Origin: Escherichia coli
GTDB lineage: Bacteria; Pseudomonadota; Gammaproteobacteria; Enterobacterales; Enterobacteriaceae
Length of the DNA stretch: 64,000 nt
Strand: one strand, 5' to 3'
Assembly (NCBI RefSeq): GCF_036507355.1
Contig: NZ_AP027877.1
The position numbers and the translations under genes were made by a program. The notes under the pieces are model-generated. The model did not search any database. It was not told the origin of the DNA and saw nothing but the letters and a program-made list of their open reading frames with translations. Shown here one piece after another: positions 3,452 to 50,252 of this stretch. How positions within the stretch are numbered: the first letter of the stretch is position 1; the number at the start of each line of letters is the position of its first letter.

Positions 3452-5893
3452 TCACTCTGCCACTTTTTTCTTCGCCGCACGCTTCGCTTTGGTCGCTGCA
3501 GCTATTTTCTGCGTTTTCGCCGATGGCTTTTTCGCTTTTCTCGCGTCTTTCTTCGCTGCTTTCGGCTTCGTTTTTTTCTCACCGCGGAAGGCGCTGTCTG
3601 GCTCAAAGTTTACCTTTTTACCGACCTGACGACGCTTGCCGCCTTTTTTACCTGCATCGCCTTTTTTCGCTTTCTCGCGCGCCGTTTTACCGACGTTGCG
3701 CGGTGCGCGTTCGCTGGAGATCAGGCTAAAGTCGATTTTGCGCTCGTCCATATTAACCGCTTCGACGCGAACTTCCACGCGATCGCCCAGGCGATAAGTC
3801 TGACCGCTGGATTCACCCATCAGGCGTTGCCCTACCTGGTCAAAGCGATAGTAGTCATTGTCCAGCGAAGAGACATGGACCAGACCATCGATGAACAAGT
3901 CGTCCAGACGGACGAAGAAGCCAAAGCCAGTGACGCTGGAAATTACGCCTTTAAAGACGTTACCTACCTGGTCGAGCATAAAGTCACACTTCAGCCAGTC
4001 AGCCACATCGCGCGTTGCTTCGTCGGCACGACGTTCTGCCATCGAACAGTGCTGACCCAGTTGCAGCATCTCTTCCATCGAATAATGGTAGCCGCCGGTT
4101 TCAGTGGTGTTACCCTGATGCCCCTGCTCTTTCGCCAGCAGATACTTAATGGCGCGGTGCAGCGTCAGGTCAGGATAACGACGAATCGGCGAAGTAAAGT
4201 GCGCATAGGACTGCAATGCCAGACCGAAGTGACCACGGTTTTCCGGATCGTAAATCGCCTGTTTCATCGAGCGCAGCAGCATGGTTTGCAGCATTTCTGC
4301 GTCAGGACGATCGGCAACAGACTCCAGCAACTCTGCATAGTCGCGCGGTTCCGGCTTGTTACCGCCCGGCAATTCCAGCCCCAGTTCCGCCAGCACTGAA
4401 CGGAAAGAGGTAATCGCTTCGGTGCTCGGCTTGTCGTGAATACGGAACAGTGCCGGTTCTTTGGCTTTCTCAACGAAACGCGCCGCCGAGATATTCGCCA
4501 GAATCATGCACTCTTCAATTAACTTGTGCGCGTCGTTACGCTGGGTCTGTTCGATACGCTCAATACGGCGTTCAGCGTTGAAAATGAACTTCGCTTCTTC
4601 GCTCTCAAATGAGATCCCGCCGCGTTCTTCACGGGCTTTATCCAGCACTTTATAGAGGTTATGCAACTCTTCGAGATGCTTAACCAGCGGGGCGTACTGC
4701 TCGCGCAGATCCTGATCGCCCTGCAGAATATGCCAGACTTTGGTGTAGGTCAGACGCGCGTGAGAGCTCATCACCGCTTCGTAGAATTTGTAGCCAGTCA
4801 GGCGGCCTTTCGACGAAACCGTCATCTCGCACACCATACACAGGCGGTCTACCTGCGGGTTGAGCGAACACAGGCCGTTAGAGAGCACTTCCGGCAGCAT
4901 CGGGATAACCTGCGAAGGGAAGTACACCGACGTGCCACGGTTACGCGCTTCTCTGTCCAGCGGCGTTGGCGGACGCACATAGTAGCTGACGTCAGCAATC
5001 GCGACCCATAAACGCCAGCCGCCGCCGCGTTTTTTCTCGCAGTAAACTGCATCGTCAAAGTCACGGGCGTCTTCGCCATCAATGGTGACCAGCGGTAAAT
5101 CGCGCAGATCAACACGGCCCGCTTTTGCTTCTTCCGGCACTTCTTCTTTCAGCCCGGCAACCTGTTGCTCAACAGCCTGCGGCCAGATGTACGGAATTTC
5201 ATGGGTACGCAGAGCGATATCAACCGCCATGCCGGTGCCCATATTGTCGCCCAGCACTTCGACGATTTTACCCACCGCTTTGGTACGGCGAGTCGGGCGT
5301 TGGGTCAGTTCAACAACCACCACAAAGCCCATCCGCGCGCCCATGATCTGATCGGGCGGGATTAAGATATCGAAGCTCAGACGGCTATCGTCAGGAACCA
5401 CAAAGCCGACGCCCGCTTCGGTAAAGTAGCGACCAACAATCTGGCTGGTTTTTGGCACCAGTACGCGGACAATACGCGCTTCACGACGACCTTTACGGTC
5501 AGCGCCCAGCGGCTGCGCCAGCACCTGATCGCCATGAATGCAGGTTTTCATCTGCTCGCTGGAGAGATACAAATCATCTTTACGCCCTTCAACCCGCAGA
5601 AAGCCGTAGCCATCACGGTGGCCAATAACGGTACCTTTCACCAGGTCGAGGCGTTCCGGCAGCGCATAGCACTGACGACGAGTAAAGACCAGTTGACCAT
5701 CGCGCTCCATCGCGCGCAGGCGGCGACGCAGGCCTTCAAGCTGCTCTTCGCCTTCAATGTGCAGTTCTACCGCCAGCTCATCACGGCTGGCCGGTTTTTC
5801 ACGTTTGGTTAAATGTTCGAGGATAAATTCCCGACTAGGGATGGGATTCGCGTATTTTTCAGCTTCGCGTTCCTGGAAAGGATCTTGTGACAT
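3452..5893 (-). CDS. rnr: Ribonuclease R
   Basis: Track ORF trimmed to the internal ATG at 5893 ([17 protein letters not shown]..., 813 aa) with GGAGG 7 nt upstream; lysine-rich C-terminal tail. Confidence 0.93.
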
Positions 5894-19889: not shown

Positions 19890-19965
<76 letters not shown>

Positions 19966-20000
19966 TTGGGTGGTCTGTGCCTTACAGCACTTTCAAATTT

Positions 20001-20076
<76 letters not shown>

Positions 20077-20112
20077 TTGGGTGGTCTGTGCTTTACAGCA
20101 CTTTTCAAATTT

Positions 20113-20188
<76 letters not shown>

Positions 20189-32626: not shown

Positions 32627-34182
<1,556 letters not shown>

Positions 34183-34270
34183 AATTTCATCGGGTCCGAA
34201 TTTTCGGACCTTTTCTCCGCTTTTCCTTGCTGTCATCTACACTTAGAAAAAAACCAGTAAGGAAACATTT

Positions 34271-34804
34271 ATGCGCCTGCTCCCTCTCGTTGCCGCAGCG
34301 ACAGCTGCATTTCTGGTCGTTGCCTGCAGTTCTCCTACGCCGCCGCGTGGCGTGACCGTAGTGAATAATTTCGACACCAAACGTTATCTCGGTACCTGGT
34401 ATGAGATTGCCCGTTTTGATCACCGCTTTGAACGTGGACTGGAAAAAGTCACCGCAACATACAGCCTGCGTGATGACGGCGGCCTGAATGTCATTAATAA
34501 AGGCTATAGCCCTGACAGAGGAATGTGGCAGCAGAGTGAAGGGAAAGCGTACTTTACCGGCGCACCAACTCGCGCTGCGCTGAAAGTGTCATTCTTTGGT
34601 CCTTTCTATGGCGGTTATAACGTTATTGCACTCGATCGGGAATACCACCATGCGCTGGTTTGCGGCCCGGACCGCGACTACCTGTGGATACTCTCCCGCA
34701 CGCCAACCATTTCTGACGAAGTGAAACAGGAGATGCTGGCAGTCGCGACCCGGGAAGGGTTTGATGTCAGTAAGTTTATTTGGGTACAGCAGCCCGGTAG
34801 TTAA
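34271..34804 (+). CDS. blc: Outer-membrane lipocalin Blc
   Basis: 177-aa ORF with lipoprotein signal (LVVACSS). Confidence 0.93.
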
Positions 34805-35118
34805 TGAGTGCTGAGTTTCAGACCAATAATCCCCAATACGATTAACGCCAGACTCGCCAGGCGCATCGGGTTAGCGGACTCACCGAGCAGCACAATGCCG
34901 GTGATGGCCGCGCCGACTGCGCCAATCCCCGTCCACACGGCATAAGCCGTTCCAACCGGTAACGATTTCATCGCCCAGGCAAGTAGCGCCATACTGACAA
35001 TCATCGCCGTCACGGTAATAACACTTGGCGTCAAACGACTAAAGCCGTGGGTATATTTCAGGCCAACGGCCCATACCACTTCCAGCAGACCAGCAATAAC
35101 TAAGATAATCCAGGACAT
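34801..35118 (-). CDS. gdx: SMR-family guanidinium exporter Gdx (SugE)
   Basis: ATG at 35118 ([22 protein letters not shown]..., 105 aa), four TM helices; stop overlaps the blc stop (convergent). Confidence 0.9.
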
Positions 35119-35298
35119 ATCAGGCTCCGGAGAATTGGGGCCGTCCCCGGTGAAAAGAGGCGTTTGCAGGTCGTCCTGCAAAGCTGATGGTTGAACGGAT
35201 ATTTTGCCAGGTGGCAGAGGAATTTCAACTATTACCTTTGTGACTATCGCAAAAAAACAAACGGCACGACACAGCTGTCGTACCGTTATTGCTTATTG

Positions 35299-35445
35299 CT
35301 ATTGCTGCGCTTTCGTTGCTGCGCCAGAAATCGCGTTACCGCCATCAGAAATGTCTTCACCAACGCCACGCGTGGTGTTGCAGGCAGTTAATACTGTTGA
35401 AAGCACCAGAACAGAAAAGATCGCTGCAATTGTCTTCTTCACCAT
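35299..35445 (-). CDS. ecnB: Entericidin B lipoprotein
   Basis: Hand-translated 48-aa [51 protein letters not shown] (lipobox LTAC); absent from the ORF track because it is under 60 aa. Confidence 0.85.
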
Positions 35446-35556
35446 AACGTCTTCCTTTTAGGTAATGTTATTTATGTTTGCCTATAGCAAATTAATAATA
35501 GACAACATCGCCAAAAATGATGGAAATCTGATGATTTTTCGGAAGAGAAGAAGAAT

Positions 35557-35682
35557 TAGCTGGCAGCGCGGGAGATGGAGTTGCCGAGATGTTTGATGTC
35601 TTCGCCGAAACCGCGAGCGGTGTTACAGCCCGTGAGCAGCGTGCTGGCAAGCAAAACAAGAACGATAAGGCGTTTCATCATC
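35557..35682 (-). CDS. ecnA: Entericidin A lipoprotein (antidote to EcnB)
   Basis: Hand-translated ORF from the ATG-ATG at 35682: [19 protein letters not shown]... (lipobox LTGC), 41 aa, stop TAA at 35557-35559. Confidence 0.8.
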
Positions 35683-35732
35683 TCTGACCTGAATAAGTGA
35701 TGGTGCAGCCTGCAGGCCGCACCACAACCGCA

Positions 35733-36299
35733 TTACTTCACGCGAGAGACGTATTCACCAGAGCGGGTATCCACTTTGATGACTTCGCCGATTTGTACGA
35801 ACAGCGGAACTTTAACCACAGCGCCAGTAGACAGGGTAGCCGGTTTGCCGCCAGTACCTGCGGTATCACCTTTCAGGCCCGGATCGGTATCAACGATTTC
35901 CAGTTCAACGAAGTTCGGCGGAGTAACGGAGATCGGCTGACCATTCCACAGAGTTACGATACACTCTGCCTGATCCAGCAGCCATTTAGCGTTGTCGCCA
36001 ATTGCTTTTGCGTCAGCAGACAGCTGCTCGAAAGTTTCGTTGTTCATGAAGTGCCAGAACTCACCGTCGTTGTACAGGTAAGTCAGGTTCATATCGACAA
36101 CATCAGCGCCTTCAGCGGAATCAGTAGATTTGAAGGTTTTTTCTACGCGAGTACCGGTCAGCAGACGACGCAGTTTAACGCGAGCAAATGCCTGGCCTTT
36201 ACCCGGTTTTACGAATTCACTCGCTTCAACCGCGTAAGGTTCGCCGTCTAACATGATTTTAAGACCAGCACGAAAATCGTTGCTATAGTACGTTGCCAT
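35733..36299 (-). CDS. efp: Elongation factor P
   Basis: 188-aa [27 protein letters not shown]... with the modified-lysine loop KPGKGQA. Confidence 0.97.
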
Positions 36300-36340
36300 A
36301 AGGCCCTCTGAAATTTGTTAATTGGTAGCTAAGCCACAAA

Positions 36341-37369
36341 ATGGCGCATATTGTAACCCTAAATACCCCATCCAGAGAAGATTGGTTAACGCAACTTGCC
36401 GATGTTGTGACCGATCCTGATGAACTTCTGCGTCTTTTGAATATAGACGCGGACGAAAAACTGTTGGCCGGACGCAGCGCCAAAAAGCTGTTTGCCCTGC
36501 GTGTGCCCCGCTCATTTATCGATCGCATGGAGAAAGGCAATCCGGACGATCCTCTTTTGCGTCAGGTACTTACCTCGCAAGATGAGTTTGTCGTCGCACC
36601 CGGATTCTCCACCGACCCACTGGAAGAACAGCACAGCGTAGTGCCTGGTTTGTTGCATAAATACCACAACCGGGCGCTTTTGCTGGTCAAAGGCGGCTGC
36701 GCGGTAAATTGCCGCTATTGCTTCCGTCGTCACTTCCCTTATGCCGAAAATCAGGGCAACAAGCGTAACTGGCAAACTGCACTTGAGTATGTTGCTGCGC
36801 ATCCGGAACTGGACGAGATGATTTTCTCCGGCGGCGATCCGCTGATGGCGAAAGATCACGAGCTGGACTGGTTGCTCACACAACTGGAAGCCATCCCGCA
36901 TATCAAACGTCTGCGGATTCACAGTCGTCTGCCGATTGTGATCCCGGCACGCATCACAGATGCGCTGGTTGAACGCTTTTCACATTCTACGCTGCAAATC
37001 TTGCTGGTGAATCACATCAACCATGCCAATGAGATAGATGAAACATTCCGTCAGGCGATGGCTAAGTTGCGCCGGGTAGGCGTTACTTTGCTGAACCAGA
37101 GCGTTCTGTTACGTGGTGTGAACGATAACGCACAAACGCTGGCAAACCTGAGTAATGCGTTGTTCGATGCCGGCGTAATGCCGTATTACCTGCATGTGCT
37201 CGATAAAGTACAGGGCGCGGCGCATTTTATGGTGAGTGATGACGAAGCACGGCAGATTATGCGTGAGTTGCTGACACTGGTATCGGGATATCTGGTGCCG
37301 AAACTGGCGCGAGAAATTGGCGGCGAACCCAGCAAAACGCCGCTGGATCTCCAGCTACGCCAGCAGTAA
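36341..37369 (+). CDS. epmB: EF-P beta-lysylation enzyme EpmB (lysine 2,3-aminomutase, YjeK)
   Basis: 342-aa ORF with radical-SAM motif CAVNCRYC; divergent from efp across a 41-bp spacer. Confidence 0.94.
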   Translation: MAHIVTLNTPSREDWLTQLADVVTDPDELLRLLNIDADEKLLAGRSAKKLFALRVPRSFIDRMEKGNPDDPLLRQVLTSQDEFVVAPGFSTDPLEEQHSVVPGLLHKYHNRALLLVKGGCAVNCRYCFRRHFPYAENQGNKRNWQTALEYVAAHPELDEMIFSGGDPLMAKDHELDWLLTQLEAIPHIKRLRIHSRLPIVIPARITDALVERFSHSTLQILLVNHINHANEIDETFRQAMAKLRRVGVTLLNQSVLLRGVNDNAQTLANLSNALFDAGVMPYYLHVLDKVQGAAHFMVSDDEARQIMRELLTLVSGYLVPKLAREIGGEPSKTPLDLQLRQQ

Positions 37370-50137: not shown

Positions 50138-50213
50138 GCGCCCCGTTGCCCGGATAGCTCAGTCGGTAGAGCAGGGGATTGAAAATCCCCGTGTCCTTGG
50201 TTCGATTCCGAGT
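50138..50213 (+). tRNA. pheU: tRNA-Phe (GAA)
   Basis: GCCCGGATAGCTCAGTCGGTAGAGCAGGGGATTGAAAATCCCCGTGTCCTTGGTTCGATTCCGAGTCCGGGCACCA, 76 nt with encoded CCA. Confidence 0.96.
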
Positions 50214-50222
50214 CCGGGCACC

Positions 50223-50252
50223 AAATTCATATAAACGGACCTCCACGGAGGT
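50223..50252 (+). terminator. Intrinsic terminator after pheU
   Basis: aaacggacctcc-acgg-aggtccgttttt. Confidence 0.7.

Follow-up and report, generated by a model that had tools for sequence, protein, structure and literature searches.

The chromosomal entericidin locus ecnAB in a 64-kb stretch of Escherichia coli DNA and its absence from an ORF track

In a stretch of 64,000 nucleotides of E. coli DNA (contig NZ_AP027877.1, hereafter the window), the interval at positions 35299-35682 very probably constitutes the chromosomal entericidin locus ecnAB, two paralogous pre-lipoprotein genes with the mechanism as published. The identification of the two genes themselves, as judged from sequence, is certain. 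The interval is the reference entericidin locus itself and not a relative of it; ecnA and ecnB have been described since 1998, and the locus is therefore already known and ordinary. Both genes were absent from the open reading frame track that accompanied the sequence.

Identity and products of the two genes

A preliminary description had placed two tandem short ORFs of 41 and 48 codons between efp and gdx. Both were recovered in an ORF list extended down to 20 aa and lie on the minus strand, a point that the description had left out. The lower end of the interval given for them was correct, but its upper end lies one base past the start codon of ecnA (35681). The coding features of the interval and its flanks are:

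35733..36299, minus strand: efp (three EF-P Pfam domains)
35556..35681, minus strand: ecnA coding sequence, entericidin A lipoprotein, 41 aa (ORF list, K-12 identity, NF007319, PF08085, RefSeq)
35625..35636, minus strand: EcnA lipobox L-T-G-C, residues 16-19 (lipobox pattern match; codon checked in the sequence)
35299..35445, minus strand: ecnB coding sequence, entericidin B lipoprotein, 48 aa (ORF list, K-12 identity, NF007487, PF08085, RefSeq)
35380..35391, minus strand: EcnB lipobox L-T-A-C, residues 19-22 (lipobox pattern match)
35191-35461, plus strand: two antisense ORFs of 66 and 85 aa opposite ecnB and the spacer, with no other ORF of 60 aa or more across the locus
34801..35118, minus strand: gdx/sugE (PF00893; NF008512, 193.5 bits)

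EcnA and EcnB are 100% identical to the E. coli K-12 MG1655 proteins b4410 and b4411, respectively (NC_000913.3). Both cover positions 1-20 of the 20-position Pfam profile PF08085 (Entericidin EcnA/B family), with 26.4 bits for EcnA and 30.2 bits for EcnB at a gathering score of 23.3. EcnA matched the NCBIfam equivalog NF007319 ('lipoprotein antitoxin entericidin A') over positions 1-41 of 41 with 114.9 bits (cut-off 86), and EcnB matched NF007487 ('lipoprotein toxin entericidin B') over positions 1-48 of 48 with 121.9 bits (cut-off 94). With the models exchanged, EcnA scored only 44.5 bits on the EcnB model and EcnB only 46.5 bits on the EcnA model. The suggested match to entericidin A/B thus holds, as the alignment to the K-12 proteins is one of identity and all three families are matched above their cut-offs. 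No observation speaks against this identification, and both translations were re-derived twice.

A lipoprotein signal was taken as a basic n-region, a hydrophobic h-region and the motif [LVI][ASTVI][GAS]C within the first ~35 residues. Both proteins have a basic N-terminus (two Lys/Arg among the first seven positions each), followed by a hydrophobic core and a lipobox, and the LTGC and LTAC cysteines proposed earlier were present on re-translation and fit a PROSITE-PS51257-style pattern (LLTG|C and VLTA|C). In EcnA, which has two ATG start codons in tandem (MMKR...), Cys19 is encoded at 35627..35625 and is predicted to be lipidated and to form the N-terminus of a 23-aa mature peptide. The corresponding residue of EcnB is Cys22 (35382..35380), predicted to begin a mature peptide of 27 aa. 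The +2 residue is Asn in both. UniProt gives lipidation at C22 of EcnB, and the failure to see intact EcnB in top-down mass spectrometry was attributed by the authors to this lipidation (PMC12529367).

The short amphipathic tails described earlier found statistical support from shuffled sequences. In an 18-residue window, the helical hydrophobic moment of the EcnA tail was equalled by none of 2000 shuffles. The EcnB tail, which is hydrophilic and glycine-rich (19% glycine), is moderately amphipathic, its moment being equalled by 27 of 2000 shuffles at 18 residues and, a weak result, by 212 of 2000 at 11 residues. A structure search returned no solved structure for EcnA or EcnB at E <= 1.

It was considered whether one or both short ORFs are chance frames in intergenic DNA that carry a coincidental lipobox. 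The lipobox pattern is indeed poorly specific, as it also matched four unrelated ORFs out of the 573 in the window that start with ATG and encode 25-90 aa, and short ORFs are plentiful (46 with 20 aa or more within 3 kb). Against this stand the curated family HMM cut-offs that both proteins exceed, their paralogy to each other (24 of 43 residues identical, 56%, E = 6e-14), dN/dS ratios far below 1 at saturated dS, the retention of both genes in three genera and the published detection of EcnB peptides by mass spectrometry (PMC12529367). With this evidence chance frames were ruled out, and their probability is negligible. A structured RNA in place of coding sequence was likewise rejected: Rfam searches with an E limit of 1 across 34000-37000, and at gathering score across the entire window, placed no family inside 35299-35682.

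In an ORF list made with a default threshold of 60 aa, the two antisense ORFs on the plus strand are all that is listed over the ecnA/ecnB interval, and both were judged spurious by their position. Since only these antisense ORFs appear at 60 aa, a length cut-off is the simplest explanation for the omission of ecnA and ecnB from the ORF track.

Signals in and around the locus

The gene order is efp-ecnA-ecnB-gdx(sugE)-blc, and ampC adjoins blc in the window. In and between the genes, the following signals were located:

35702..35723, minus strand: GC-rich hairpin in the 51-bp efp-ecnA spacer (-22.6 kcal/mol, z = -2.64), with no U-run after it
35481..35509, minus strand: candidate ecnB promoter core, formed by the block GATGTTGTCTATTATTAA (35509..35492) and the extended -10-like TGCTATAGG (35489..35481)
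35449..35459, minus strand: ecnB ribosome-binding region AAAAGGAAGAC, with a strong AAGGAAG Shine-Dalgarno about 6 nt before the ATG
35416..35444, minus strand: predicted MicA sRNA pairing site, across the start codon of ecnB and roughly its first ten codons
35250..35287, minus strand: intrinsic terminator after ecnB, with a stem of 12 bp (35287..35260) and then a TGTTTTTTTG run

The hairpin between efp and ecnA was not called by the terminator scan. It may act as a leaky terminator or as an RNA-stability element, in which case transcription from efp may continue into ecnA. As ecnA starts 51 bp downstream of efp and the intervening hairpin has no U-run, its expression probably does not depend on that of ecnB. 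The Shine-Dalgarno sequence of ecnA is weak (AGGTCAGAG ahead of the ATG).

The spacer between ecnA and ecnB is 110 bp long and AT-rich. Within it, the block GATGTTGTCTATTATTAA-N-TTGCTATA (35509..35481) is common to E. coli and Salmonella, and TGCTATAGG fits seven of the nine positions of the sigma-38 extended -10 consensus TGcTATA(A/C)T (PMC5389655). From this fit we infer that TGCTATAGG could be the exact -10 element of ecnB. The ecnB promoter was described to be transcribed by sigma-38 RNA polymerase and poorly recognised by the sigma-70 enzyme; it overlaps an OmpR site, and expression is RpoS-dependent and OmpR-repressed (PMC5389655). A sigma-70 promoter scan left the upstream regions of both ecnA and ecnB empty and matched only a promoter-like site of gdx (35228..35201). 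The absence of a sigma-70 site upstream of ecnB is consistent with a sigma-38-type promoter.

Downstream of the promoter core, the AAGGA and GAC of the ecnB ribosome-binding region do not vary among E. coli, Salmonella and Klebsiella. MicA was shown experimentally to repress ecnB mRNA in E. coli (PMC3551931). The 5' end of MicA gave an RNAduplex energy of -23.2 kcal/mol with 35444..35416, compared to a shuffle mean of -10.4 (sd 2.7), and none of 500 shuffles was as good; the predicted pairing site is to be taken as a lead only. The terminator after ecnB was found by the terminator scan and is strong (-26.2 kcal/mol, z = -5.56, none of 200 shuffles as stable). Overall, the anatomy of the locus matches the published regulation of ecnA and ecnB.

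On the gdx side, a guanidine-II (mini-ykkC) riboswitch with two ACGR-loop hairpins was found at 35136-35182 on the minus strand, directly upstream of gdx/sugE (50.4 bits, gathering score 32). The element is already known from the gdx leader of E. coli (PMC12186494), and its first hairpin was also flagged as terminator-like by the terminator scan (35182..35163). The mechanically called gdx ORF (34801-35181, minus strand, 126 aa) takes a TTG at 35181 as its start and crosses the riboswitch; the true start is the ATG at 35118 (105 aa), as the full-length match to NF008512 and the RefSeq annotation show. Elsewhere in the window, three tandem tRNA-Gly(GCC) genes (19890-20188, minus strand) and one tRNA-Phe(GAA) gene (50148-50223, plus strand) are present, presumably glyVXY and pheU, which is ordinary for this region of the chromosome.

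Conservation and variation of ecnA and ecnB

The locus is nearly universal in E. coli. A 701-bp query matched 5,425 of 5,426 complete genomes, with ecnA and ecnB annotated under all matches listed, and a 411-bp query limited to the two genes reached at least 80% coverage in 5,414 of the 5,426. RefSeq annotation of ecnA/ecnB lay under the match in 5,414-5,419 of these genomes.

Compared to the K-12 locus of Bishop et al. (1998), the window encodes the same proteins, with the same intergenic signals and the same order efp-ecnA-ecnB-gdx-blc-ampC, and its DNA is 98.3% identical over 661 bp. Four substitutions were found in these 661 bp, one of them synonymous in ecnA and three outside both coding sequences, together with a 1-bp difference in the T-run of the terminator and, where ecnB stops (35296-35307, minus strand), a tandem duplication of 6 bp (GCAATA GCAATA). 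As a result of the duplication ecnB ends in CAG CAA TAG CAA TAA instead of the CAG CAA TAA of K-12, so that the stop codon is TAG and not TAA, a second in-frame stop follows two codons on and the protein is unchanged. None of the differences alters EcnA or EcnB. An 84-bp probe over the stop region matched 4,651 complete E. coli genomes, 1,456 at >=95% identity and 3,195 at 90-95%. Among the matches listed, those of the first group span 84 bp and those of the second 76-78 bp, in keeping with genomes that have the duplication and genomes that lack it. The duplication is apparently a common polymorphism.

In E. coli IAI39 (NC_011750.1) an IS1 lies in the ecnA-ecnB spacer, where 118 bp separate the end of the annotated transposase coding sequence from the start of ecnB. 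In the annotation ecnA and ecnB both remain intact coding sequences, with a T14A exchange in EcnA, and the strain would offer a natural test case for the uncoupling of ecnA from ecnB. In E. coli PT62 (NZ_CP090448.1), the best-matching genome, a blc-sugE-ecnB-ecnA-efp-epmB block is flanked by two IS1 copies, and the neighbour of blc is yjeJ and not ampC and frd. This layout suggests a rearrangement mediated by IS1.

Salmonella and Klebsiella have the genes in the same order, efp-ecnA-ecnB-sugE-blc, with ecnB in the same place after efp and before sugE. Their EcnB proteins are identical to that of the window at 46 and 44 of 48 residues, respectively, and keep the lipobox as well as a CNT(A/T)RG(F/V)GEDI core. 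The EcnA orthologues (43-44 aa) are far more diverged, with 25-33 of 41 residues identical, and are named only 'entericidin A/B family lipoprotein' in RefSeq. Salmonella further harbors a gene for a LuxR-C-terminal-type regulator between ecnB and sugE, in opposite orientation to both, which is absent from the E. coli window and which we take to be ecnR.

Nei-Gojobori estimates of dN/dS for ecnB were 0.015 against Salmonella and 0.023 against Klebsiella, at a dS of 1.3-1.6, and the mature EcnB peptide is identical in E. coli and Klebsiella. For ecnA, the signal peptide of which varies in length, the values were 0.13 and 0.21. These ratios show that both genes are under purifying selection. By the same estimates the 'antidote' ecnA evolves about ten times faster than the 'toxin' ecnB, a strongly asymmetric constraint.

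Plasmid stabilisation, as known for classical toxin-antitoxin modules, was reportedly described for the entericidin locus in 1998. Plasmid-borne copies were considered as backing for such a role and rejected. The locus gave 13 matches in PLSDB, 12 of them typed non-mobilizable. Four, with lengths of 4.8-5.4 Mb, are evidently entire chromosomes filed under plasmids. Of the smaller records one was examined, the 452-kb IncHI2A record pPJT1-452kb of Salmonella sp. (NZ_OM317741.1); it carries efp, epmB, ecnAB and sugE in chromosomal gene order and may be a chromosome-plasmid hybrid or a misassembly. With chromosome-sized records and a chromosomal block in the 452-kb record, natural carriage was not convincing, and plasmid counts from PLSDB for chromosomal genes need caution.

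Toxin/antidote module or envelope lipoproteins

By analogy with established lipoprotein biology, we infer that pre-EcnA and pre-EcnB would receive a diacylglycerol at the lipobox cysteine, be cleaved by signal peptidase II and become N-acylated (Lgt, LspA and Lnt, respectively). Two lipid-anchored peptides with periodically amphipathic tails would result, 23 aa long for EcnA and 27 aa long for EcnB. With Asn and not Asp at +2, both are predicted to be carried to the outer membrane by the Lol system. In the model of Bishop et al. (1998), EcnB destabilises the envelope and is bacteriolytic if over-produced in stationary phase, EcnA counteracts it, and the pair could in this way act as a toxin/antidote module. 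While gene identity, lipoboxes, paralogy, conservation, selection and signal anatomy were computed here, lipidation, localisation, lysis and antidote action are taken from the literature or deduced: according to the summary given in PMC7296081, Bishop et al. (1998) observed that over-production of EcnB raises bacteriolysis and that ecnA in cis counteracts it.

The 'toxin/antidote' label is a standard annotation inherited from this one study of 1998 and has since been questioned. Later authors left the label open because an ecnA deletion is viable (Keio collection) and the Agrobacterium homologue of EcnB, Atu8019, is not lytic (PMC7296081). Atu8019 caused no cell lysis and no disruption of liposomes and is not pore-forming; many Proteobacteria carry ecnB without ecnA, and the outer-membrane vesicles of several genera contain EcnB homologues (PMC7296081). 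EcnB is routinely seen in proteomics and, with up to ~70,000 copies per cell, is among the most abundant small proteins of healthy cells (PMC12529367).

Two known systems can be compared to ecnAB. Classical toxin-antitoxin modules (e.g. type II) also consist of two adjacent small genes, with one product reported harmful and the other protective. In contrast to these, EcnA and EcnB are predicted exported lipoproteins and paralogous to each other, the 'toxin' gene ecnB has its own stress-regulated promoter with no joint autoregulation with the antitoxin, and deletion of the antitoxin gene ecnA is viable (PMC7296081). Atu8019 of Agrobacterium tumefaciens is alike by description, being a small lipoprotein with a 53-aa precursor and a lipobox cysteine at position 22 that is annotated as entericidin A/B family; it differs in that it has no ecnA partner and is exposed on the surface of vesicles, where it functions in vesicle docking and not in lysis (PMC7296081).

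A real, if tentative, possibility is that ecnAB is not a true toxin-antitoxin pair, and that its products are abundant stress-induced lipoproteins of the outer membrane or of vesicles, whose role is structural or concerns membrane stability or the surface. The lysis on over-production would in that case be an artefact of over-expression, as is common for small membrane-active lipoproteins. The abundance of EcnB was determined in normally growing cultures (PMC12529367), and the viable Keio mutant, the frequent occurrence of ecnB without ecnA, the vesicle homologues and the non-lytic Atu8019 (PMC7296081) speak in the same direction. So do the IS1 tolerated between the two genes in IAI39 and the strict conservation of EcnB, as a mature peptide identical between E. 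coli and Klebsiella at a dN/dS of ~0.02 is more typical of a constrained housekeeping component. This reading is opposed by what Bishop et al. (1998) found in their experiments on lysis and on the antidote, in the form in which PMC7296081 relates it, by the secreted EcnB homologue of Enterobacter C6-6, which is cited there as bacteriolytic against Flavobacterium, and by the tandem arrangement of the paralogues, which is kept in three genera.

A role mainly in interbacterial antagonism, in which EcnB is released (e.g. in vesicles) as a bacteriocin-like lipopeptide and EcnA is the immunity factor of the producer, seems unlikely. It could draw on the entericidin of Enterobacter sp. C6-6, cited in PMC7296081 as required against Flavobacterium psychrophilum, and on the vesicle homologues cited in the same article. 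However, no dedicated gene for export or processing adjoins the locus, its neighbours being efp, gdx and blc, and near-universal, near-identical copies within E. coli leave little scope for competition between strains. To our knowledge, antagonism by entericidins has not been tested in E. coli.

For the published toxin/antidote mechanism, the viability of the ecnA deletion, the non-lytic Atu8019, the abundance of EcnB, the IS1 of IAI39 and the moderate amphipathicity of EcnB argue against it, and a strict toxin-antitoxin mechanism of ecnAB is plausible but unproven. It is conceivable, and we put it forward tentatively, that ecnAB is mislabelled, with EcnB as a very abundant, extremely constrained envelope or vesicle lipopeptide of housekeeping or stress-protective function and EcnA as a faster-evolving paralogue that modulates it. 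If true, this would be a refinement and not a discovery, as the idea is already in the literature. The main value of the finding is a point of quality control: length-filtered ORF tracks silently drop real, highly expressed genes of fewer than 50 codons, such as ecnA and ecnB.
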